Shown here one piece after another: positions 4,957-17,076 of a DNA stretch of 18,852 bases (positions within the stretch are counted from its first letter, which is position 1; each line of letters begins with the position of its first letter). The translations under genes and the position numbers were made by a program. The stretch comes from a virus. The stretch spans positions 1 to 18,852 of IMG/VR virus record IMGVR_UViG_3300045988_060630. One strand, written 5' to 3'. Below the pieces are notes generated by a model. That model was not told where the DNA came from and did not search any database. It was given only the letters and a program-made list of their open reading frames with translations.

Positions 4957-6054
4957 ATGGCTAATAAAATTACCACTTTTTTATCAGGTCAAACGGGCAA
5001 ACAAGTCTCAAACATTGACCTATTGAACTCTATCCGCACCCGTGCCAGTGCTGACTATCAGGCGGATATTCCTGTACTTGAGGGCGCACGCATTAACCAC
5101 GCAACAGTCCCATATCAGGATTTTCAAAAGCATGCCAACGAGTTTTTCACAGCTCTTGTAAACCGCATTGGCTCTACAGTTATTAAAGCCCTTACTTATG
5201 AAAATCCGCTTGCTATTTTCAAGTCTGAAACTTTTGAGTTCGGGGACACCTTGCAAGAAATCTATGTACACCCAGCGGAAAAGAAAACCTATGACGCAAA
5301 ATCAGACGTTTCTCCGTTTAAGTTCGCTGATACAGACATCGAAGTCTTTTATCACACTTTGAACAATGAAAACTACTATGAGCGTACTTTTGAACGTGCT
5401 TGGATTCAGAAAGCCTTTGTTTCTGACATGGCGTTTGATGAGTTTGTGGACAAAATGTTTACATCATTGCTTTCATCCGACACGCTGGACGAGTACCAAG
5501 CGGTTAAAGGCGTACTTGAGAAATCACTTGCAGAAGTCAGCTATACTGACCTTAAAGGCAAGGCTAAGAAAATCACGGTGGCAGGTACGAAGATTGACGA
5601 AAACAAACAAGACTTTGTTGTAGACTTTAACCAGTCCCTAATCAACTTGTCTAAACGTTTCACAATCCCAAGCCGTACAACGTTTAACAATCCAGTAGGC
5701 GTGCCAAACATGACGGCAATCGAAGACCAGTATCTGGTTATCTCCGCAGAATTTTCTACACATCTTGACATGCTTTTGGCTAACGCCTTTAACATGGATA
5801 AAGCCAGCGTACTTGCTCGCACTATCGTAGTAGATGATTTTGAAAAATTCACGGGAGAGGGTGCAAACAATGGACGTAAGCCAGTTGCTTTCCTTATCTC
5901 AGCAAAATCTATCATTAACAAAGACAAGTTGGTACACATGGAAGCAATCCGCAACCCTCGCAACATGACCTATAATTATTTCTATCATCATCACTACATG
6001 ACCAGTCTTTCACTTTTTGAAAACATTCATTTCTGGTATGTTGAGGAAGCCTAA
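4957..6054 (+). CDS. Major capsid (head) protein
   Basis: 365-aa ORF with an AGGGAG SD, between the scaffold-like gene and the portal gene, and followed by a GC-rich terminator, which is typical for the most abundantly expressed late gene. The position matches Cp-1 orf9. Confidence 0.8.
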   Translation: MANKITTFLSGQTGKQVSNIDLLNSIRTRASADYQADIPVLEGARINHATVPYQDFQKHANEFFTALVNRIGSTVIKALTYENPLAIFKSETFEFGDTLQEIYVHPAEKKTYDAKSDVSPFKFADTDIEVFYHTLNNENYYERTFERAWIQKAFVSDMAFDEFVDKMFTSLLSSDTLDEYQAVKGVLEKSLAEVSYTDLKGKAKKITVAGTKIDENKQDFVVDFNQSLINLSKRFTIPSRTTFNNPVGVPNMTAIEDQYLVISAEFSTHLDMLLANAFNMDKASVLARTIVVDDFEKFTGEGANNGRKPVAFLISAKSIINKDKLVHMEAIRNPRNMTYNYFYHHHYMTSLSLFENIHFWYVEEA

Positions 6055-6066
6055 AGGCTGACCAAG

Positions 6067-6093
6067 GGCGGGCAATAGCCCGCCTATTTTATT
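6067..6093 (+). terminator. Rho-independent terminator after the capsid gene
   Basis: 7-bp all-G/C stem ggcgggc (6067-6073) / gcccgcc (6078-6084), loop aata, followed by tattttatt. Confidence 0.8.
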
Positions 6094-6110
6094 AAGTGAA
6101 AGGGGACTAA

Positions 6111-7124
6111 ATGAGTTACAAGAATTACAAGCGACATCTGGGCAAGATTGAGCTAAACAAAGAAACCGTAGAGCGTAACCGTCTAGCCTTTTTTGAGTTT
6201 TATTTCAATTATTTCTACAATATCGTGGTCAACTATTTCACATGGGAGGGTTTGCCTAACGATATTGACGAGTTATTTATAGAGAAAAAGCTGATACAAA
6301 ATGGACATGTGGCTTTCTTTCATGATGACACTTTTGGCTTTATGGCCCAAGGTGGAACAAGAGGGGAACGCTTAAACCATTATGACCAGCCTTTGACCTA
6401 TCAACCCGTCAACGCTTCCAGTATGAACTATTTTAAACAAATGGAAATCGCTTATACTGAAAACGATTTTAGGGTTATTTCAGAACTACACGAAGCCAAT
6501 CCAGACAAGATTAAAAGACCGTGTATTGTGATTCCTAACAATAATTTCTATGAGCCTTACATCGGCTATTTAGAGTTATTTTGTGAGAAATTGGCAGATA
6601 TTGAGCTGACAATTCAGCTAAACAGGAACGCACAAATCACACCGTATTTCATCTTTGCGGACAATACAAACGTGTTATCAATGAAGAATATCTTTAATAA
6701 GATAGCCAATTTTGAACCCGTTGTATATCTGAACAAGCAGAAAGACCAAGACGGACAAGACAGCTTTAAGCAGTTATCTGACTATATACAAGTTTTCAGA
6801 ACGGACGCACCGTTTTTACTTGACAAGTTGCATGATGAAAAGTTACGAGTGATGAACCAGTTGCTGACCTTTATTGGTATCAACAACAACCCAAGCGATA
6901 AAAAAGAGCGTCTGGTAGTTTCCGAAGCTATTTCTAATAATGGGGTTATCTCAGCGAACATTGAAGTAGGCTGGAAGTCAAGGCGAAAATTCGTTGAGCT
7001 TATCAATAAATGCTACGGGCTAGAAATCAGCGTGAAACCAGCGGAGACTATTCAGCAGTTTAACCTTGATAAAGTGGCGCTAGACCTTGCAGAAAAGGAG
7101 GGAACAATCATTGACCCAGAATAA
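6111..7124 (+). CDS. Portal / head-tail connector (upper collar) protein, phi29 gp10-like
   Basis: Collinear motif matches to phi29 gp10 as I recall it: F.WEGLP..I...F.EK.L...G.V.FF.D, QLNRNAQITP (phi29 NQNAQKTP), VFRTDAP...DKL...K, N.L.TF.GI.NN...KKER.V..E. Size is 337 aa against 309 aa. Confidence 0.9.
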   Translation: MSYKNYKRHLGKIELNKETVERNRLAFFEFYFNYFYNIVVNYFTWEGLPNDIDELFIEKKLIQNGHVAFFHDDTFGFMAQGGTRGERLNHYDQPLTYQPVNASSMNYFKQMEIAYTENDFRVISELHEANPDKIKRPCIVIPNNNFYEPYIGYLELFCEKLADIELTIQLNRNAQITPYFIFADNTNVLSMKNIFNKIANFEPVVYLNKQKDQDGQDSFKQLSDYIQVFRTDAPFLLDKLHDEKLRVMNQLLTFIGINNNPSDKKERLVVSEAISNNGVISANIEVGWKSRRKFVELINKCYGLEISVKPAETIQQFNLDKVALDLAEKEGTIIDPE

Positions 7125-7770: not shown

Positions 7771-8355
7771 ATGAAAGATTTATCAAACGCTAAAATACTA
7801 AAATATGATAGTATGTTAGAAGAAATCACGCTTTTCAGCTTTCAGGATTTTGCTTATAGCGATGATGGTTACTATTATATCCAGTCAAATAGCAGACGCT
7901 TGGGCGACCTTGCTAAGTTGTGGATAAAACTAAAGCCTATTTCTTATCATTATGAAAGCATTGAAAATGAAACTTTTTGGACTATCAGAAAGAGCTATCA
8001 GCCATTACAATCAACTAAGGCGCTTCTATTCATTCGCTTTAAGATTGTGGGAGCTTATTATAGTTTTGAAAGGTTGACAAGCAAAAGCAAGCTGAAAGGC
8101 TTTGCTAGAGTGATTGACGACAACAACTATTTCTCACGGATTCCACTTGTGAACGAGGTGGTGCATTGGGATAACGGAGTTATCGTAACCCCTAACTACC
8201 AGATGAACGTCACAGGGCTAAAAGAAACCCGTGTAGAGATTGATGGTCAGCAACTCCTTGAAGATTGGTCAACATTTAAAATCAATGTAACCAATGGTAG
8301 AAAAGGAGTACCTCGCACCATCATGGCAGCAGAAAGAGGACATGAAACATTATGA
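7771..8355 (+). CDS. Hypothetical virion/morphogenesis protein (194 aa)
   Basis: ORF in the structural operon with an AAAGGG SD. Its stop overlaps the next start (ATGA). Confidence 0.7.
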   Translation: MKDLSNAKILKYDSMLEEITLFSFQDFAYSDDGYYYIQSNSRRLGDLAKLWIKLKPISYHYESIENETFWTIRKSYQPLQSTKALLFIRFKIVGAYYSFERLTSKSKLKGFARVIDDNNYFSRIPLVNEVVHWDNGVIVTPNYQMNVTGLKETRVEIDGQQLLEDWSTFKINVTNGRKGVPRTIMAAERGHETL

Positions 8356-8672
8356 TAATTATCAACTTGTCCGAGACAACGGACACGCTACAAATCGAAG
8401 TCATGGGACACGGAGATGATAAAGACCAGTCTTGCGCCCGTGTTTCTACCGTTTGCGATTGTATTTATTTAGGATTTAAAGACCAGCTAGAGAAATACAA
8501 GAAGCACAACGGCTACACACTTTTAATTGCTGATAAGAAAAAGCTAGGACGTAAAGGTATTTTACTTTTGCGCTATCTTGAGTACATCGAAGCATTAAAA
8601 GAACTCTATCCAAACTCAATCAAAATCGAAAACAAAACAAAAGGAGCAAAAGAAGATGGCAAAGACAACTAA
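8352..8672 (+). CDS. Prp-family (DUF464, peptidase C108-like) cysteine protease; probable capsid maturation protease
   Basis: The 106-aa protein aligns by eye with Staphylococcus Prp, also about 106 aa. Shared features: MI.... N-terminus, GH(G/A) with His20, D.SCARVS with Cys28 (Prp: D.VCAGAS), and C-terminal L.L....L..L.EL.YPN.I.I. The position corresponds to Cp-1 orf13, which was experimentally shown to be a protease. Confidence 0.7.
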   Translation: MIIINLSETTDTLQIEVMGHGDDKDQSCARVSTVCDCIYLGFKDQLEKYKKHNGYTLLIADKKKLGRKGILLLRYLEYIEALKELYPNSIKIENKTKGAKEDGKDN

Positions 8673-9637: not shown

Positions 9638-10414
9638 ATGAATCCAGAAGAATTTAAAGATGAATTTTTCCGAGCTTATCGGGGGCGCTATTCTTCTTAC
9701 TGGGTGGAGCGTTGGGGGCTTATCCCCTCAATCCCTACCAGCTTTGATAATGCCAATTCTATTTACGAGCTTTTGGCTTGGCTACAGCGTGCCTTTAAGC
9801 AACTACTAGATGACTTTGTGGCTTTGGAAAGCGAACTAGAAGATTATAAGAACGCTTTGACAGAATTGTTGGAGCAACTTATTCCCTTACTTATCCGCCG
9901 TTACATGGAAAGCAAGGAAGCGGACGACTGGTTTAACAAAAAAGCAGACATCTACTATAGCAAGATTATCAAGCCTTACATTGACGCAGAGATTGCTAAA
10001 GTCAATAAGAAAATCGCTGAACTTGAAAAGAAAGTAGATGATGAAGTTAAGCGCCTTGATGGACGGATTGACGCTTTAAACGACAAGCTAGAAAAAGAAA
10101 TCAAGAAGCTTGACGACAGAATCACAAAGGAAGTTGAAACCTTAAACAACCGTATCACAGCGGAAAACAACGTGCTCAAGGAGCGAATCGAAGCCCTAGA
10201 AAATGCTAACACAGGTTTGCAAAACGCTTTGCGTAAAATCATTGAAAACCTTGAGGGTTCAGGCGCTTGGACTGGTGGCTTGACTGGTGGATTTAACCAA
10301 GGGCGCAACATCGCAACAGGTAACATCAACGTATTCGGTGGAACACCAGACGGTAACAGCTTTATCCGAACCAACAACGGAAGCACAGAAAACGACCTCG
10401 CTGGAGGTATCTAA
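9638..10414 (+). CDS. Putative coiled-coil tail fibre / collar appendage protein (258 aa)
   Basis: There is a long charged helical segment with 11-residue periodicity (EIKKLDDRITK / EVETLNNRITA / ENNVLKERIEA) and a Gly-rich C-terminus (GSGAWTGGLTGGFNQG...GGTPDG). Confidence 0.6.
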   Translation: MNPEEFKDEFFRAYRGRYSSYWVERWGLIPSIPTSFDNANSIYELLAWLQRAFKQLLDDFVALESELEDYKNALTELLEQLIPLLIRRYMESKEADDWFNKKADIYYSKIIKPYIDAEIAKVNKKIAELEKKVDDEVKRLDGRIDALNDKLEKEIKKLDDRITKEVETLNNRITAENNVLKERIEALENANTGLQNALRKIIENLEGSGAWTGGLTGGFNQGRNIATGNINVFGGTPDGNSFIRTNNGSTENDLAGGI

Positions 10415-11166
10415 TGGCTTTACACTTAAAATTTTCAACCTCAACAAATGCCAACGTGGAAAACTTTGGGACAGGTGTACCACCTTGGACGCAAGCATAC
10501 GCCAACGCTTGGCAGTTCTCAGGAGACACAGACTATGGTTATATGACCAATGGCAATACGACCTATATACAGTACGGGCAAAATGACCCGTCTGTATGGG
10601 CGTCAATGCGTTTCTGGTGCGAAAGCGTGGAAATCCTAGAAGAGACAACCAACGCAGACAACTCTATCACAGCTAAAATCAGAGTAAAAGCGCTTTTTTG
10701 GTGGTCAAAACGGGTCAGCTCAAATGCTGGGTATCGGGTAGAGTATGACATCAGGGTAAACGGTCAGACTATCTGGACGTTTAGCGGTTACACAACCGAT
10801 GAAGTGATTAAAAATGACGAGAGTTCTCAAGAGTTTACCGTCACTATACCAGCCGAGGGCAGTTCCTCTGCCTCCGCCTTAAATATCAGCGTCAGCTATC
10901 CAGACGGGCAATACTCAAACAATTCATTTTATGTGGGTATGTTTCTATACAATCCTAATAAGAAGAGTATCAAGCCGTGGGCTATCCGTAAGAGCGGAAT
11001 CTTTAAGACCTTAAACCGTCCATCGGGTATCTTCCAACAGAGAAAAGGCAGTTGGAAAGACATCAGCGCCCAACCCTCAAACGCAGTCGGGCAAGCAGTC
11101 AGCGCACCGCACAGCATGAGAAAGTCGGGTCAATGGATAGGACAAGGACAGATAGGACAACAATAA
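10414..11166 (+). CDS. Putative tail/receptor-binding structural protein (250 aa)
   Basis: TAATG stop-start overlap with the upstream gene, with GGAGG upstream. The sequence is Trp/Tyr/Asn-rich and beta-type. The C-terminus has three degenerate RK(S)G.W motifs. A terminator follows. Confidence 0.6.
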   Translation: MALHLKFSTSTNANVENFGTGVPPWTQAYANAWQFSGDTDYGYMTNGNTTYIQYGQNDPSVWASMRFWCESVEILEETTNADNSITAKIRVKALFWWSKRVSSNAGYRVEYDIRVNGQTIWTFSGYTTDEVIKNDESSQEFTVTIPAEGSSSASALNISVSYPDGQYSNNSFYVGMFLYNPNKKSIKPWAIRKSGIFKTLNRPSGIFQQRKGSWKDISAQPSNAVGQAVSAPHSMRKSGQWIGQGQIGQQ

Positions 11167-11167
11167 G

Positions 11168-11192
11168 GGAGGGTTTCAGCCCTCCTATTTTT
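11168..11192 (+). terminator. Rho-independent terminator
   Basis: Stem ggaggg (11168-11173) / ccctcc (11180-11185), loop tttcag, followed by tattttt. Confidence 0.7.
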
Positions 11193-11204
11193 AAAGGAGA
11201 GACT

Positions 11205-12695
11205 ATGCAAGAATCTACTAAAATATGGCTTTATGCAAAAAGCCCGTTTAAAAATGACTATGCTAATGTACTCAATTTTGAGACAAAAGAAGCTATGGAG
11301 GATTTTTTCACGAAGAAGAATCCGCATATAGAAATTGTATACGAGTATGACAAGTTTCAATATACACAAAGAAACGGGTCAATTGTAGTTTCTGGACGGG
11401 TAGAGAAATATGAAAATGTAACGTACATGAGATTTATTAACAACGGTAGAACCTACTATGCCTTTGTCTTTGACGTGCTTTATATCAATGAAGACGCTAC
11501 ACGCATTATATATGAAGTGGACGTATGGAACACCTACCAGCACGAACTAAAGGCGCTTAACGTGATTGGACAGGTGGAGCAACAGACATTGCCTAATGAG
11601 TTGTGGGCGCTGAAAGACAGTCAGCAAGGTTTTTCAGTTGGGACGAAGTACGCTACACGGGCTGGAGAGGTTGGGATAGATACAGAGTGGCTTGTAGTCG
11701 TGGCAAAGCCTACTATAAAGATGACAACCAAGGCAAACAGACCTGTAAATATGAGTTATTCAGGTATGCAGAAAACGTTTAAATACTTTTTTATCCCTGT
11801 AAATTTGAAAAGTGGAGCGTCCAGACCGTTTATTTTCCAAGGCAAAAAGTATGACAGCTTTTACCTTGAAAACCTTTATAAGCACCTTTTCGGGTTGAAT
11901 CAAGACGGCAGTAGCACCGTAAACCAGATTGTAAACATGTATTTAAGCCGAGATATTGGGGTAAAATACAAGGAAACAACCGATGGCGACAAGACCTATA
12001 TAGAAATCTTGTCTAACATCACAGGAAGCGTTGCAGAAATTGGGCGAAAAAACACTCGAAACTATCGCACATCAGGAAGCAGTTCAAGCGGTGGAAGTGG
12101 TAGCACCAACGAAGAGGGCGACACATCGACAGAGGAAAGCCGTGTTAGGTTAGTAACCCGAATTATTAAAAAGCTAGTGCCAGACGCTACGGCGGAGGGT
12201 ATCGCTGGAATTATCGGAAACTTTTCAGCAGAAAGCAACGTCACAGCCAAGAAATACGAAGCGGACTATGCTACAGGCTACGAGTACGAGAAAATTGAAT
12301 CAGAGCCAACAGCAGAAAACCTCATGGGAAGCTGGGGCGCTTTTGCTAGTCTCTACTCTATCAGCTTGAATGAAGCTGGATATAGAGGGAGTGACGGTAA
12401 GCACTGGATAGGTATTGGGATAGGTCAGTGGACGGGTCCAAGGGCAGAGGAGCTTTTGAACTTTGCAAGAAGTCAAGGGAAATCATTGTGGGACTTTAAC
12501 CTACAATTTCAATTCATGAACCAAGAAAGCAGAGCGGACACGTTTAGACGTGTAGCAAGTTCTACAGCAAGCGCCAGCACTAATGCAAGCGACTTTATGA
12601 ACAACTGGGAGGGGGTAGCCTATAAGGAAGCGGAACGCATAGAGCAGGCAAACGCATGGCTATCTACTATTCAAGACGAACTACAGAAAGGGTAA
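11205..12695 (+). CDS. Tail knob protein, N-terminal half (phi29 gp9 N-domain-like) fused to a phage tail lysozyme domain
   Basis: The true start is the ATG at 11205 (AAAGGAGA SD); the 11052 extension crosses the terminator. The N-terminus (SPFKNDYANV..., YMRF.N..RTYYAFV........T.I.YEVDVWNT) matches my recollection of phi29 gp9. A Ser/Gly linker (SGSSSSGGSGS) follows. The C-terminus (IAGIIGNFSAES ... GIGIGQWTGPRAEELLNFA ... QFQFM) has the phi29 gp13-type tail lysozyme signature. Confidence 0.8.
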   Translation: MQESTKIWLYAKSPFKNDYANVLNFETKEAMEDFFTKKNPHIEIVYEYDKFQYTQRNGSIVVSGRVEKYENVTYMRFINNGRTYYAFVFDVLYINEDATRIIYEVDVWNTYQHELKALNVIGQVEQQTLPNELWALKDSQQGFSVGTKYATRAGEVGIDTEWLVVVAKPTIKMTTKANRPVNMSYSGMQKTFKYFFIPVNLKSGASRPFIFQGKKYDSFYLENLYKHLFGLNQDGSSTVNQIVNMYLSRDIGVKYKETTDGDKTYIEILSNITGSVAEIGRKNTRNYRTSGSSSSGGSGSTNEEGDTSTEESRVRLVTRIIKKLVPDATAEGIAGIIGNFSAESNVTAKKYEADYATGYEYEKIESEPTAENLMGSWGAFASLYSISLNEAGYRGSDGKHWIGIGIGQWTGPRAEELLNFARSQGKSLWDFNLQFQFMNQESRADTFRRVASSTASASTNASDFMNNWEGVAYKEAERIEQANAWLSTIQDELQKG

Positions 12696-12698
12696 ACA

Positions 12699-14537
12699 AT
12701 GGCAGAAGCAACAGAAACGCTAAAAGCACTAAATGAAATCAAATCAAGGGTGGGTACTAGCGTAGGTAACGGGCAATGTTACGGGCTAGTGGCGCTATAT
12801 TCTCAGCTTTTGGGAGGTTGTGACATCGGGGGAGGTATCAACACCCCGAACCCGAACGGTAACGGCAGACAAGCCAGCGGAAGCGATACGCAGAGGGGTA
12901 TGAGTGCCAGTAACATCGGGGGCGATTATGACTGGGAAGCCTTGGGCTGGAAAGTCCGCTTTGACCCGTCTTGGGCTGATTTAAGAGTAGGCTGTATTGT
13001 GAACTATATCCCGTCAGGTAGCAATATCTGGGGGCATACGGCTGTTATATCAGCGGTCAACGGCTCAAGCTATGACGTTATAGAGCAGAATTATGCTTGG
13101 AGTGGTTACACAACAGAAAGAACAGGTATAGACACGGTTGCCAATATTGAAAGCATTATCTACCCTCCCGAAGTCGTGGCAGGTGGCGATATTGGAGAGA
13201 TAACAGGTAACACAGGAGATAGACAGCTAGGAAACGGGGACTACTCAAAAACAGCCTTTGACGTTGAAGCCTTGCTGATTGAAGTTGACGGATTTTTTGA
13301 CTATCGACCTAATGTGTACGAAGTGCCAAACCTCCTAAAAATCGCTTATGACCAGATACAAGAGGGGCTACGCTCATATATGGGTAAAGACGACCTAGAA
13401 ATAGAAGTACAGCTATTAAATAGTGAGTTCACAGAGATAGAGCTTTATGATATTTACGGGAATAGTTATGTGTATCAACCGCAGTATTTACCAAGAACGA
13501 TTGACGAAGCCCACAAGTATAAAGTTATTGTAAGCGGTAGCCTTGGCGATAGTAACCAAGTACATATTAACTTTTTAGAATATAACAACGCTAACAATAT
13601 CAGCTACGCAGACCAGAACATTTTGGAAAATCTCGGTACGGGAACATGGGCAGAACATAACCCAGAGCATTTCAAATACGGCTTGAATGACGTTACAGGA
13701 AAAAGCGTTGCAATCCTAAATGACGCAGAAGCCAGCTATATTCAGAGTCATAAGAATCAGATGGAGCATACACAGCTTACATTTAAAGAGAATCGGGACA
13801 TGCTGAAACAGAGTGTAGACCTTTCTAATAAACAAGTTGCTACAGCCAACTCACAAGCCAGCTACAACGCACAGTTTGCCGTAGACAGCGCCAACATTAA
13901 CCAATGGACAGAGGGCGCAAGCGGAATCTTAAACGTGGCTGGAAATCTCCTAACAGGTAACTTTGGGGGCGCACTTGGTGGGCTTGCGTCAGGTGGTATG
14001 AAAGTTTTCAACGCTAACCGTGATTATAATGATAAAGTGGTACAGCAGGGGTTTACCAGCGAAAACAACGCTTTGAAATCTCAATCAAACGCACTCGCTA
14101 ACATGAAATCTAAGATAGCACTAGACCAATCCATCAGAGCCTACAACGCAACGATGGCAGACCTACAAAATCAGCCTATCAGCGTCCAACAAATTGGGAA
14201 TGACCTTGCTTTCCAATCAGGGAACAGACTAACAGACGTTTATTGGAAAGTCTCCCTAGCTCAAAAAGAAATCATGGGACGGGCTAACGAGTACATCAAG
14301 TGCTACGGGGTGCTTGTCAACTGGTTCACTAATGACGCTTTAAGTGTAATGAGGTCAAGAAAGCGGTTTAATTATATCAAGATGATTAACGTTAACCTTG
14401 GAACACTAAGAGCGAACCAGTCGCACATGAACGCTATTCAGGCTATTTTTCAATCAGGTGTAAGGATATGGAACTATTCAGTCAATAAAGCAGACAGCAT
14501 TTTGTTTGATATTCAGAAAAACAACCCGAATTTTTAA
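12699..14537 (+). CDS. Tail knob protein, C-terminal half, with an N-terminal CHAP peptidoglycan hydrolase domain
   Basis: CHAP signature: GNGQCYGLV (Cys at 12777-12779), IWGHTAVI (His at 13035-13037), VIEQN. The C-terminal ~250 aa has a Gly-rich hydrophobic loop and ends ...FNYIKMINVN...IFQSGVRIWN, which resembles the phi29 gp9 C-terminal region. It is in the same frame as the upstream ORF. Confidence 0.8.
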   Translation: MAEATETLKALNEIKSRVGTSVGNGQCYGLVALYSQLLGGCDIGGGINTPNPNGNGRQASGSDTQRGMSASNIGGDYDWEALGWKVRFDPSWADLRVGCIVNYIPSGSNIWGHTAVISAVNGSSYDVIEQNYAWSGYTTERTGIDTVANIESIIYPPEVVAGGDIGEITGNTGDRQLGNGDYSKTAFDVEALLIEVDGFFDYRPNVYEVPNLLKIAYDQIQEGLRSYMGKDDLEIEVQLLNSEFTEIELYDIYGNSYVYQPQYLPRTIDEAHKYKVIVSGSLGDSNQVHINFLEYNNANNISYADQNILENLGTGTWAEHNPEHFKYGLNDVTGKSVAILNDAEASYIQSHKNQMEHTQLTFKENRDMLKQSVDLSNKQVATANSQASYNAQFAVDSANINQWTEGASGILNVAGNLLTGNFGGALGGLASGGMKVFNANRDYNDKVVQQGFTSENNALKSQSNALANMKSKIALDQSIRAYNATMADLQNQPISVQQIGNDLAFQSGNRLTDVYWKVSLAQKEIMGRANEYIKCYGVLVNWFTNDALSVMRSRKRFNYIKMINVNLGTLRANQSHMNAIQAIFQSGVRIWNYSVNKADSILFDIQKNNPNF

Positions 14538-14542
14538 AAGTA

Positions 14543-14551
14543 TGATATAAT
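14543..14551 (+). promoter_or_regulatory. Extended -10 promoter (TGaTATAAT) upstream of the packaging/lysis genes
   Basis: TG at 14543-14544 and TATAAT at 14546-14551, with no recognisable -35. It lies within the 11-mer aagtatgatat (14538-14548), which also occurs at 4382-4392 (+) and 4358-4368 (-). Confidence 0.6.
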
Positions 14552-14574
14552 GAAGTAGAAAGGAGTGGTTTTCT

Positions 14575-15657
14575 ATCGAAGAACAAGAAAAATGGTACAA
14601 TCCGCAGAAAATGCTATCTTATAACCAGTATCTTAATTTTGTAATTGGTGGGCGTGGGATTGGGAAAACCTTTGCACTCAAGAAATACCTATTTAAGCGT
14701 TTCATAGACAAAGGGGAGCAATTCATCTACCTAAGACGGAACAAGTCAGAGCTTGACCGAATAGACAAGGACAAGTTTTTTACTACGGAATTGCTTAAGC
14801 AAGTCTTTACAAATTTTGAGGTAATAGACAGTGACGCTAGTAAAATTCATACTAAGATTGTTTTCAGAGCTGACAACATGGAAGAAGAGGAAAATATACT
14901 TGTGTTGTCTTCTACTAAGATAATACTTAACGGGAAAATCGTTTGCTATCTCAAGAGCCTTTCTACATGGGTAGACTTGAAAGGGTCAGAGTATGATGAG
15001 GTAATGAGTATTTTATACGATGAAGTTCTAATAGACGTTACCAGTAAAAAGAGGTATCTCGATAACGAGGTAGAAGCGTTATTAAACTTTATCTTCTCAG
15101 TTTTCCGAAGACGTGACGGGTGTCATGCCTATCTACTATCAAATGCAAGTAATTTCAACAACCCCTATTTTGCCTTTCTTAAATTTTATGACGATAACGG
15201 CAAGCGGTTCTATAATTTGAAACAGTATGCTACGCTTATAGAGTTCCCCCCTCATTCAGCCTTTCAAACAGAGGAAGAAAAAGAGAGCGGATTCTTTAAG
15301 CTATTGAGTAAGTCCAGTATTTACGAGAGCGTAGCTAATAACGAATTTCAGATTAAGAACGATAAAAATATAGCGAAGATTAAAGGCTTGAAGTCTAGAC
15401 TGTATAGTTTCTATTGTGACGGTACTTTCTTAACAGGGTACTATATCGACAATATGGTTTATATCGCTAAAGGCTTTGACAAGAATTTGACCGCTTACTG
15501 TTTAGAAGTGGAGCAAGTGGAGGACGGTTTTGTTTACTTGAATAAGGCAAGCGCACTAGGTAAGACCCTGAGAAGTCTTTACCTTAAGAATATGTTTATT
15601 TATGAAGATTTAGAAACTAAAAATAAATTTATAGAGGTTATCAATCATGTTATATAA
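14575..15657 (+). CDS. DNA encapsidation (packaging) ATPase, phi29 gp16-like; probable ATC start
   Basis: Walker A is GGRGIGKT and Walker B-like is ILYDEV. The frame is open from 14554. The translated upstream segment [10 protein letters not shown] matches the phi29 gp16 N-terminus ([10 protein letters not shown] as I recall it), so translation must begin upstream of the ATG at 14611. The only near-cognate start is ATC at 14575, 9 nt after the AAAGGAG SD. The 3' end and the function are secure. Confidence 0.85.
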
Positions 15658-16051
15658 TATTATGTTAGAAGTTGCTAAAGGCGACTATATCACAATTCTC
15701 TTTGCTTTGATTCTGTTTGACTTTATCACAGGCTTTTTAAAGGCTTGGAAATGGAAAGTGACAGACAGCTGGACAGGGTTAAAAGGGGTTATCAAACATA
15801 CCCTAACGTTCATTTTTTACTACTTTGTAGCGGTATTTTTAACTTATATTCACGCTATGGCAGTCGGTCAGATTTTGCTAGTTATCATTAACTTATACTA
15901 TGCACTTTCAATTATGGAAAATCTCGCTGTTATGGGTGTCTTTATCCCTAAATTTATGACGGCTAGAGTACAGGAAGAATTGCAGAAATACACAGCACAA
16001 CTAGACGCAGGGAAAGACCTGCTAGAAGAATTTAAAGGAGATAAGAATTAA
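15647..16051 (+). CDS. Holin (134 aa, three predicted TM segments, charged C-tail)
   Basis: It lies directly upstream of the endolysin and overlaps it (TAATG). Hydrophobic segments are [34 protein letters not shown] and [25 protein letters not shown]. The tail is acidic/basic. Size and position match the Cp-1 holin. Confidence 0.85.
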
Positions 16052-17076
16052 TGGTTAAAAAGAATGATTTATTTATTGATGTTTCAAGTCACAACGGCTA
16101 CGATATAACAGGTATCTTGGAGCAGATGGGAACAACTAACACGATTGTTAAAATCTCAGAAAGTACGACCTATTTAAACCCTTGCTTGTCTGCTCAAGTG
16201 GAGCAGTCAAACCCTATCGGATTCTATCACTTTGCCCGTTTTGGTGGTGACGTAGCAGAAGCAGAAGCAGAAGCACGCTTTTTCCTTGATAACGTACCTA
16301 CACAAGTTAAATACCTTGTATTGGACTACGAAGACGACCCAAGCGGAGACGCACAGGCAAACACTAACGCCTGCTTGCGCTTTATGCAGATGATTGCAGA
16401 CGCTGGATATAAACCTATTTATTATAGTTATAAACCTTTCACACTTGAAAACGTGGACTATCAGCAGATTTTAGCGCAATTCCCTAATTCTCTATGGATT
16501 GCTGGATATGGCTTAAACGATGGTACAGCTAACTTTGAATATTTCCCAAGCATGGACGGTATACGCTGGTGGCAATACTCTAGCAATCCGTTTGACAAGA
16601 ATATTGTACTATTGGACGATGAAGAAGATAATGTAAGCAGTAAAAACACTATAAAAAACCTTAACACCGTAGCCAACGAGGTCATTCAAGGGCTTTGGGG
16701 CAACGGTCAAGAGCGTTATGACAGCTTGACAAATGCAGGTTATGACCCTCAAGCAGTTCAAGACAAAGTGAATGAAATCTTAAACGCTGGAGAAGTTGCA
16801 GACCTTAACACCGTAGCCAACGAGGTCATTCAAGGGCTTTGGGGCAACGGTCAAGAGCGTTATGACAGCTTGACAAATGCAGGTTATGACCCTCAAGCAG
16901 TTCAAGACAAAGTGAATGAAATCTTAAACGCTGGAGAAGTTACAGACCTTACCACCGTAGCCAACGAAGTCATTCAAGGGCTTTGGGGCAACGGTCAAGA
17001 GCGTTATGACAGCTTGGCAAATGCAGGTTATGACCCTCAAGCAGTTCAAGACAAAGTAAATGAAATACTTTCATAA
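16051..17076 (+). CDS. cpl7: Endolysin: GH25 muramidase plus three CW_7 cell-wall-binding repeats (Cpl-7 type)
   Basis: The N-terminal ~190 aa ([29 protein letters not shown]...YHFARF...LVLDYEDDP...WWQYSS) is the Cpl-1/Cpl-7 GH25 catalytic module as I recall it. The C-terminus has three 48-aa repeats (LNTVANEVIQGLWGNGQERYDSLTNAGYDPQAVQDKVNEIL), the Cpl-7 CW_7 architecture, and is not made of choline-binding repeats. Confidence 0.95.
   Translation: MVKKNDLFIDVSSHNGYDITGILEQMGTTNTIVKISESTTYLNPCLSAQVEQSNPIGFYHFARFGGDVAEAEAEARFFLDNVPTQVKYLVLDYEDDPSGDAQANTNACLRFMQMIADAGYKPIYYSYKPFTLENVDYQQILAQFPNSLWIAGYGLNDGTANFEYFPSMDGIRWWQYSSNPFDKNIVLLDDEEDNVSSKNTIKNLNTVANEVIQGLWGNGQERYDSLTNAGYDPQAVQDKVNEILNAGEVADLNTVANEVIQGLWGNGQERYDSLTNAGYDPQAVQDKVNEILNAGEVTDLTTVANEVIQGLWGNGQERYDSLANAGYDPQAVQDKVNEILS
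16658..17073 (+). repeat. Tandem 144-bp direct repeats (2.9 copies) encoding the CW_7 modules
   Basis: The copies are 16658-16801, 16802-16945 and 16946-17073. By direct comparison, copies 1 and 2 differ at one base (g/a at 16798 vs 16942). Copy 3 has four substitutions and then diverges in its last ~10 nt. Confidence 0.95.

Follow-up and report, generated by a model that had tools for sequence, protein, structure and literature searches.

A split gp9-type tail knob with two predicted built-in peptidoglycan hydrolases in a Cp-1-type streptococcal podophage

The 18,852-nucleotide IMG/VR record IMGVR_UViG_3300045988_060630, analysed here at its full length (hereafter the 18.85-kb window), represents approximately the entire genome of a streptococcal podophage of the Cp-1 type (genus Cepunavirus). 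Two adjacent open reading frames (ORFs) in its tail region, ORF1 and ORF2, are by alignment jointly colinear with the tail knob protein gp9 of phi29, and at the break between them ORF1 ends with a predicted lysozyme and ORF2 begins with a predicted CHAP domain. We propose, with a probability of roughly 0.8, that the two chains form a split gp9-type knob with a built-in two-enzyme peptidoglycan-hydrolase module, co-assembled from six copies of each chain, which would cut the cell wall at entry in place of a separate tail-tip lysin.

In a multiple alignment, the segment from approximately residue 285 of ORF1 to residue 185 of ORF2 forms a ~340-residue insert between residues ~276 and ~322 of gp9. 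The canonical gp9-type architecture, a single chain of ~580–600 residues, is not matched by two ORFs of 496 and 612 residues, and on sequence grounds the pair is homologous to the gp9-type knob family without being a canonical member of it. The start codon of ORF1, ATG 11205, is common to all relatives; it sits behind the Shine-Dalgarno (SD) motif AAAGGAG, and TTG 11052, at which the mechanical ORF list opens the frame, is not the start. ORF1 is 97–98% identical to the tail protein of the phages SOCP and Cp-7 and matches PHROG 30532 ('tail protein') with 1170 bits, and ORF2 is 97% identical to the tail protein of Cp-1, Cp-7 and SOCP and matches PHROG 2248, also named 'tail protein', with E=5e-106.

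The N-terminal half of the knob is recognizable in ORF1 by family, sequence and fold. Residues 5–114 match Caud_tail_N, an N-terminal tube-protein-like β-sandwich (Pfam, 47.8 bits, cut-off 27), and phmmer aligns residues 5–263 with residues 9–272 of gp9 (5fb4, E=3.1e-10), with additional matches to the knobs of Andhra (8egs) and C1 (4eo2). When the AlphaFold2 (AF2) model of ORF1 was submitted to Foldseek, the only significant matches were the knobs of phi29 (5fb5), Andhra (8egs) and C1 (4eo2), plus phi29 gp13, and the fold of the knob N-half superposes on 8egs_Y and 4eo2_A with a root-mean-square deviation (rmsd) of 2.3–3.1 over ~117 columns. Linker 1, which is rich in Ser, Gly, Thr and Glu, follows this half and lies in a region predicted to be disordered, with a predicted local distance difference test score (pLDDT) below 50 at residues 273–303.

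By sequence and model, the C-terminal domain of ORF1 is a gp13-type lysozyme and, as such, a predicted glycosidase. Residues 328–487 match Phage_lysozyme2 (PF18013) with 77.6 bits (cut-off 28.2), covering profile positions 15–138 of 140, and BLASTP recovers phi29 gp13 directly (E=2e-6). A search of the PDB with a profile whose alignment contained gp13 is circular and was disregarded; a profile built without gp13 returns the N-domain of phi29 gp13 as its sole PDB match (3csr, E=5.4e-5). The domain is modelled with a pLDDT of ~90, and the model matches 3csq_A over 192 columns (Foldseek, E=5.6e-4, rmsd 3.8). Glu343 within the motif GNFSAES aligns with Glu45 within GNMQSES of gp13, a residue that is reportedly catalytic, and Glu343 is invariant in 65 relatives, in which the motif GIGQWTG is likewise conserved.

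The N-terminal domain of ORF2 resembles the CHAP domains of streptococcal phage lysins. Residues 6–141 match the solved CHAP lysin Ly7917 of a streptococcal phage (5d74; phmmer, E=4e-14), and the AF2 model of the domain, with a pLDDT of 70–93, matches 5d76, 5d74, 8xyf, 4olk and 4csh with E-values from 9e-9 to 5e-4 (Foldseek), these structures belonging to Ly7917, PlyGRCS, LysGH15 and LysK, and so has the papain-like fold of CHAP domains. Cys27 (GQCYG), His113 (GHTAV), Glu129 and Asn131 (EQN) line up with the corresponding residues of 5d74; across 62 relatives, the only substitution at these four positions is Asp for Glu129, in 4 of the 62. The entry title of 5d76, the closest solved relative, describes crystallization with the hydrolysis product of muramyl dipeptide, which by analogy hints that the CHAP domain of ORF2 may act as an N-acetylmuramoyl-L-alanine amidase.

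These results bear out what the initial annotation had read from the sequence. It had placed two lytic modules on either side of the ORF junction, within positions 12058–13170, and this interval indeed runs from residue 285 of ORF1 to residue 157 of ORF2, taking in linker 1, the lysozyme that closes ORF1, the junction and the CHAP domain that opens ORF2. The Ser/Gly linker that it described after the knob N-half is found at residues 285–310 and is the segment predicted to be disordered. The gp13-type lysozyme at the C-terminus of ORF1 agrees between Pfam, the gp13-free profile and the AF2 model, and the CHAP domain as N-terminus of the knob C-half has a marginal Pfam score, but the phmmer match to Ly7917 and Foldseek agree with it. 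Pfam, where Phage_lysozyme2 and CHAP had been expected, returns both above cut-off (77.6 and 26.9 bits), the quoted motifs GNFSAES, GIGQWTG, GQCYG, GHTAV and EQN are all present and conserved across 62–65 relatives, and the Cpl-7-type endolysin, described as separate, is encoded downstream with a GH25 domain and three CW_7 repeats (Table 1).

The remainder of ORF2 comprises Gly-rich linker 2, at which the pLDDT falls below 50 (residues 178–201), and the C-terminal half of the knob. BLASTP aligns residues 236–359 with gp9 324–428 (E=5e-6) and residues 479–595 with gp9 476–594 (E=3e-9), residues 461–592 match phi29_gp9_C (PF20934, 53.7 bits), and the ORF2 model gives a weak Foldseek match to 5fb5_B (E=8e-3). 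A predicted helical hairpin falls between the blocks that end at gp9 428 and begin at gp9 476, in a region of low model confidence. By its position and by homology, this hairpin is predicted to be the counterpart of the L-loop of gp9 and the 'channel loop' of Andhra, whose function has been described and for which entry into the membrane has been proposed (PMC6542822, PMC9710869).

Table 1. Positions of the knob genes, their domains and the endolysin in the window
Feature	Position	Strand	Basis and details
SD motif of ORF1, AAAGGAG	11193..11199	+	Read from sequence; 5 nt before ATG 11205
ORF1, 496 aa: knob N-half, linker 1, lysozyme	11205..12695	+	Pfam Caud_tail_N and Phage_lysozyme2; PHROG 30532
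Knob N-half, ORF1 aa 1–284	11205..12056	+	Homologous to phi29 gp9 residues ~9–276
Linker 1, ORF1 aa 285–310	12057..12134	+	Ser/Gly/Thr/Glu-rich; sequence TSGSSSSGGSGSTNEEGDTSTEES
Predicted gp13-type tail lysozyme, ORF1 aa 311–496	12135..12692	+	PF18013; putative catalytic Glu343 at 12231–12233
ORF junction	12685..12701	+	Read from sequence; SD-like AGAAAGG 12685–12691, stop TAA of ORF1 12693–12695, spacer ACA, ATG 12699–12701
ORF2, 612 aa: CHAP, linker 2, knob C-half	12699..14537	+	Pfam CHAP and phi29_gp9_C; PHROG 2248
Predicted CHAP domain, ORF2 aa 1–157	12699..13169	+	PF05257; Cys27 12777–12779, His113 13035–13037, Glu129 13083–13085, Asn131 13089–13091
Linker 2, ORF2 aa 158–185	13170..13253	+	Gly-rich; pLDDT < 50 at aa 178–201 (AF2)
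Knob C-half, ORF2 aa 186–612	13254..14534	+	Homologous to phi29 gp9 residues ~322–599
Predicted helical hairpin, ORF2 aa 352–490	13752..14168	+	AF2 helices H352–417 and H423–490; Gly-rich hydrophobic turn aa ~405–437
Endolysin	16051–17076	+	Pfam GH25 and three nearly identical CW_7 repeats

Conservation within the Cp-1 clade is as high in the two enzyme domains (mean identities of 0.90 and 0.92) as in the two structural halves of the knob (0.91 and 0.89). The two linkers are the fastest-diverging segments overall: linker 1 has a mean identity of 0.80 compared with 0.90–0.91 in its neighbours, and linker 2, in which identity drops to as little as 0.36, is conserved least of all. For both lytic domains the nonsynonymous divergence (dN) is 0.05–0.25 (lysozyme, 0.12–0.18), and dN/dS is at most ~0.16 where computable, values that are upper bounds only since the synonymous divergence (dS) is saturated in most comparisons. 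Judged by these substitution patterns, both lytic domains are under purifying selection.

Knobs with enzymes at the same site, encoded by an uninterrupted gene, occur among the relatives of ORF1. We searched 1.8 billion cluster representatives exhaustively with ORF1 using HMMER and applied Pfam to matches of this search; among the best 150 of its 736 matches, many of the proteins closest to the knob N-half are single chains of 1039–1302 residues that start with the N-terminal and end with the C-terminal part of the knob. Between these parts, P0160, P0162 and P0163 carry a PF18013 lysozyme followed by CHAP, the CHAP motifs GNGQCYA, GHT and EQN being visible in the P0162 and P0163 sequences, and P0165, P0172, P0175 and P0322 carry a glucosaminidase followed by CHAP. 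The glucosaminidase is followed by M23 in P0169 (1039 aa) and by a GDSL esterase (a weak GDSL-like match) and Amidase_5 in P0174 (1268 aa), and P0167 has an unassigned segment followed by a PF18013 lysozyme. P0169 and P0174 are knob proteins of uncultured relatives with two and three enzymes, respectively, at the same site; in its glucosaminidase, P0169 shares 47% identity with tail proteins of Streptococcus thermophilus and group B Streptococcus siphophages. The gene is also split in other ways, after a knob N-part with a glucosaminidase (P0176, P0190, P0192) or with a glucosaminidase and CHAP (P0171). Within GenBank phages, the full arrangement of the window is restricted to five records of Cp-1, Cp-7 and SOCP.

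A search of IMG/VR started from P0160 alone returned no relatives, and one started from an alignment of three fused proteins did: ten contigs of 12–20 kb contain uninterrupted fused ORFs of 1168 or 1129 aa, and an eleventh contains an ORF that reaches the contig end after 934 aa. In addition, a 17.7-kb JGI contig with the gene order of the window encodes a 1105-aa fused knob, of which the CHAP and knob C-part is 51% identical to ORF2. In the fused proteins, a low-complexity linker of 20–30 residues joins the lysozyme to CHAP. In the window, ORF1 ends directly after the last helix of the lysozyme and ORF2 opens at the first helix of CHAP, so that the stop and restart take the place of the inter-domain linker.

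The existence of fused homologues raises the question of whether ORF1 and ORF2 are in fact one gene, interrupted by a sequencing or assembly error or a recent pseudogenizing mutation, or bridged by read-through, from which a single knob of ~1110 residues would be made. Such a reading would account for the frame that ORF1 and ORF2 share in the window, where only TAA-ACA separates them, and the fused P0160 crosses the junction of SOCP and Cp-7 as a single tblastn piece. The pattern across relatives is nevertheless difficult to reconcile with it. We retrieved 71 related IMG/VR loci (66–98% protein identity) and inspected the junction in 69, and 68 of these have two ORFs, with an ORF1 of 493–498 aa where complete and a complete ORF2 of 611–615 aa; the sole exception is the Cp-1 reference record (L028), in which frameshifts break both ORFs. 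Most loci (59) have a spacer of 3 nt between stop and restart, seven have 2 nt and three have 1 nt, and the stop of ORF1 is TAA, TAG, or TGA directly followed by TAA. With spacers of 1 or 2 nt in 10 of the 69 loci, the shared frame of the window is incidental, and the differences in spacer length and frame among loci exclude read-through. The GAAAGG motif and the ATG restart are never lost from any of the 69 junctions, and three more divergent lineages (L076–L078; 35–59% identity, ORF1 42–59%), which have Amidase_2 endolysins, encode the same two genes with spacers of 11–12 nt. The 20–30 additional linker residues of the fused forms are, moreover, absent in the window, and we give the one-gene reading almost no weight. 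In the window, the SD-like AGAAAGG sits within the last codons of ORF1, and the SOCP authors give AAAGGGTAAACAATG as ribosome-binding site plus start. This conserved stop and restart next to an SD-like motif would fit translational coupling, which may favour equal amounts of the two chains.

The Cp-1 reference sequence (L001; NC_001825 / Z47794; 3206–6534) differs from its relatives in that ORF1 is divided into orf17 and orf18 and orf19 starts 26 codons late. The tblastn alignment requires two pieces in this record, whereas both ORFs (496 and 612 aa) are intact in SOCP, in Cp-7 and in every metagenomic relative. The Cp-1 sequence, which dates from the 1990s, probably contains frameshift errors, in which case the annotated promoter PL6 would fall inside ORF2.

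Two further explanations accept the split knob and differ in what the inserted domains would do. The lysozyme and CHAP domains could be former enzymes that now serve as cell-wall- or receptor-binding modules, as structural decorations or as a plug of the knob, given that some catalytic domains have been co-opted for binding or multimerization, as PMC12442389 describes for a glucosaminidase domain that mediates multimerization, and that the tip lysin of Andhra also has a gating and structural role (PMC9710869). We consider this unlikely, since Glu343, Cys27, His113 and Asn131 are invariant down to 66% identity, with Glu129 changing only to Asp, and the QCY, GH and EQN motifs persist in fused and split relatives of 35–44% identity (P0160, P0162, P0163, L076). 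Other lineages moreover hold different catalytic families at the same site (GH73, M23, Amidase_5), which argues for selection on enzymatic function rather than on one particular fold. Alternatively, the domains could be active chiefly late in infection, in lysis and progeny release or in preventing re-adsorption to debris, as might be expected from the very similar domains of endolysins, which include the closest CHAP structures and a PF18013 domain, 36% identical, in the PlyCA-like protein of phage pBovineB21. However, both domains lie covalently within an essential tail tube protein and have neither a signal sequence nor wall-binding repeats, a complete cassette of holin and GH25/CW_7 endolysin is encoded in the genome, and homologous systems employ their tail-tip lysins at entry, which together make a mainly late action very improbable.

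We therefore return to the split knob with two built-in hydrolases, for which local digestion of peptidoglycan during entry, replacing a separate gp13-type tip lysin, is by analogy the most likely function. We infer that both chains are present in virions in a 6+6 stoichiometry and that the two domains are catalytically active, with the bond specificities, the position on the knob and the role at entry set out as follows. ORF1 would contribute the head-proximal β-sandwich of the knob and a gp13-type lysozyme on a flexible Ser/Gly tether of ~25 residues, and ORF2 a CHAP cysteine amidase or endopeptidase on a second flexible tether together with the remaining knob, including the helical, membrane-penetrating channel loop and a C-terminal segment that would complete the N-terminal sheet, as in homologous knobs. 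In Andhra, the knob chain starts in the top β-sandwich, forms the channel loop and runs back to the top, where it completes the N-terminal sheet (PMC9710869), so that ORF1 and ORF2 would form an intertwined complex, presumably with six chains of each. Because the insertion follows the N-domain and precedes the channel loop, the tethered enzymes are expected on the lower knob, where phi29 gp13 and Andhra gp10 act. Translational coupling (stop, 3 nt, ATG, with the SD inside the end of ORF1) would supply the two chains in roughly equal amounts, and each virion would show six lysozymes and six CHAP domains near the end of the tail. After adsorption, the lysozymes would cut glycan strands and the CHAP domains peptide stems, locally, upon which the knob would get to the membrane, the channel loops would exit and the DNA would be ejected, as for phi29 and Andhra. 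Lysis from within would be left to the holin and the Cpl-7-type endolysin.

Several points weigh against this proposal. The PF05257 match of the CHAP domain (ORF2 residues 23–131), at 26.9 bits against a cut-off of 26, is marginal when taken alone, and AF2 models the two knob halves poorly, with mean pLDDT values of 66 and 61. The three-dimensional position of the enzymes on the knob is deduced only from how the chain of Andhra gp12 has been described to run, and translational coupling from the nucleotide sequence alone.

The initial annotation had also suggested that a lysin cassette was inserted into an ancestral gp9-like gene. This is strongly supported by comparative sequence data, in particular by the single ORFs of 1105–1168 aa in Cp-1-like contigs of the same gene order, in which the N-terminal knob part, a glycosidase, CHAP and the C-terminal knob part follow each other in one frame. 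In a neighbour-joining tree of the knob N-domain the fused and split forms interleave and the Cp-1 split core has a support of 100/100, but the deeper nodes have only 6–65/100, and either form may be ancestral. The GC content of the cassette (0.47–0.49) exceeds that of the window (0.40), and GC at third codon positions is 0.46–0.48 compared with 0.43–0.45 in the knob halves. Since the excess lies in codon positions 1 and 2, the GC peak reflects Gly/Ala-rich protein rather than foreign DNA, and a recent horizontal acquisition on the basis of composition was rejected. We likewise rejected an origin of the whole cassette from a streptococcal siphophage tail lysin, because only the CHAP domain is similar (35–39% identity) and the glycosidase (GH73) of TP-J34 has no BLASTP similarity to the lysozyme of the window. 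The nearest relatives of the lysozyme outside knob proteins, P0148–P0159, are 35–43% identical over the aligned region and mostly ~415–430 aa long (one is 594 aa), with PF18013 near the N-terminus. Several of them are encoded on contigs of 30–65 kb, which may be siphophages or prophages.

More tentatively, and with slightly less than even odds in our estimation, the region of gp9 ~276–322 may constitute a permissive socket for exchangeable hydrolase cassettes (PF18013 or GH73 with CHAP, M23 or Amidase_5, sometimes with a GDSL esterase) across a large and almost entirely uncultured clade of small podophages of the streptococcal type, in which the cassette would replace a whole separate tail-tip complex and the gene would have been cut repeatedly at different points. 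If so, the cut would lie after the glycosidase, as in the window, or after CHAP, as in P0171, and would let each enzyme swing freely from one tether. The classical model phage Cp-1 would in that case be the sole member of the clade in culture and could readily serve for experiments.

With phi29 (gp9, 5FB4/5FB5; gp13, 3CSQ/3CSR), the window shares knob halves that are homologous to gp9 and colinear with it, among them a predicted counterpart of the L-loop region, and a lysozyme of the same Pfam family as the gp13 N-domain, with an aligned glutamate in GNxxxES. As in gp13, a glycosidase would be paired with a peptide-bond hydrolase at the end of the tail. In contrast, the phi29 knob is a single chain of 599 aa, its lysin is a separate protein of 365 aa and the second domain of this lysin is an M23 metallopeptidase instead of CHAP, whereas the enzymes of the window are inserted at gp9 ~276–322 and the gene is cut between them. 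The order of a glycosidase followed by CHAP, with presumed wall digestion at the knob tip, is shared by Andhra gp10 and P68 gp11 of staphylococcal picoviruses and by PlyCA of C1, which consist of a GyH domain, a linker and CHAP (PMC9710869). These are, however, separate proteins, whereas in the window a covalent tether joins each enzyme to a chain of the knob, with presumably six copies of each. The lysozyme of the window found only gp13 and had no match to the GyH structures 4F88 or 6O43 by sequence, profile or Foldseek; a relation to the GyH domain of PlyCA (residues 1–205) was rejected, as the solved structures of PlyCA and P68 gp11 were never matched. In pBovineB21 (L003, vB_SbRt-pBovineB21), the knob gene is followed immediately by a gene annotated as 'PlyCA' (5158–6585) and then by those for holin, PlyCB and an HNH endonuclease. 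The N-terminus of this 'PlyCA' is CHAP-like and its C-terminus is a PF18013 lysozyme related to that of the window, so that the domain order is reversed, and the metagenomic P0153 has the same architecture.

A knob divided over two adjacent genes is also found in the phi29-like phages Phanie, Astrid and DU_PP_III of Gram-negative hosts (PMC11476376), where one gene corresponds to the N part and the other to the C part of gp9. Extra domains occur at the break there as well, inserted at the N-terminus of the C-part. Those inserts are, however, Ig-like and predicted to bind carbohydrate rather than being enzymes, and only the C-part has extras. Streptococcal siphophage tail lysins (TP-J34 ORF45, Sfi11 and the 'antireceptor' proteins of S. 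thermophilus) similarly place a glycosidase and then CHAP inside a structural tail protein, and the 35–39% identity of the CHAP domains of many of these proteins to that of ORF2 suggests that the ORF2 module is drawn from the same streptococcal phage pool. They differ in that the carrier is of the Prophage_tail/Dit-Tal type, the glycosidase is a GH73 glucosaminidase rather than PF18013 and the whole is a single polypeptide. T4 gp5 likewise has a lysozyme domain in the middle of a structural tail-tip protein and ends as two pieces, gp5* and gp5C, that remain together in the particle. There, the pieces arise by proteolytic cleavage rather than from two genes, only one enzyme is present and the carrier fold is unrelated.

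The gene order of the window is phi29-like, with a type-B DNA polymerase, a phi29-type capsid protein, a connector, several unassigned genes, the two 'tail protein' genes, an encapsidation ATPase, a holin and an endolysin, and the DNA of positions 11000–14600 is ~90% identical to the phages Cp-7, SOCP and Cp-1. A Pfam scan of the 17 largest plus-strand ORFs returned no separate gp13-like gene and no M23 match, and the only lysin-type domains outside ORF1 and ORF2 among these ORFs are those of the GH25/CW_7 endolysin. By type, the endolysin corresponds to Cpl-7 and not to the choline-binding Cpl-1, although the tail genes are equally close to Cp-1, SOCP and Cp-7. Within the morphogenesis block, an ORF of 106 aa at 8352–8672 (+) weakly matches PF04327, the family of Prp cysteine proteases, in a full-length alignment that scores 20 bits (E=8e-4) and thereby stays under the cut-off of 27, and could encode a prohead or capsid-processing protease. 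The two genes directly upstream of the knob, at 9638–10414 and 10414–11166 (+), have no reliable family match; one encodes a coiled-coil protein with a Gly-rich C-terminus and the other a protein of 250 aa, which appears to be the 'Appendage' feature under a Cp-7 match. Both keep their position in every relative, whether its knob is split or fused.

Tail-associated wall hydrolases are well known (phi29 gp13, Andhra gp10, P68 gp11, siphophage Tal, T4 gp5), and no new principle is involved here. The SOCP/Cp-1 genome paper and the GenBank records give only 'tail protein' for both genes, and the Pfam matches of both ORFs are already precomputed in public databases. Full-text literature searches returned no description of knob-embedded lysins in Cp-1-type phages, with an earlier mention in subscription papers being possible, and the literature searched contains no description of a hydrolase pair at an internal knob site with the gene cut between the enzymes or of the accompanying family of fused and swapped variants. 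The architecture has apparently been overlooked in a classical phage.

Virion-borne wall hydrolases determine whether a phage is able to get through the thick Gram-positive wall and are wanted as heat-stable 'enzybiotics'. The split knob described here would represent a third solution for phi29-like phages, beside phi29 with its free gp13 and the staphylococcal picoviruses with their plug-in GyH-CHAP dimer, and would change the expected stoichiometry to six copies per enzyme compared with about two. In practical terms, it would yield two new predicted anti-pneumococcal catalytic modules that lack choline-binding repeats, as well as a defined site for engineering enzymes displayed on the knob. 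Together, the fused, split and swapped relatives may be regarded as a natural series on how enzymes can be grafted into an intertwined structural protein and on how a gene can be cut without loss of assembly.

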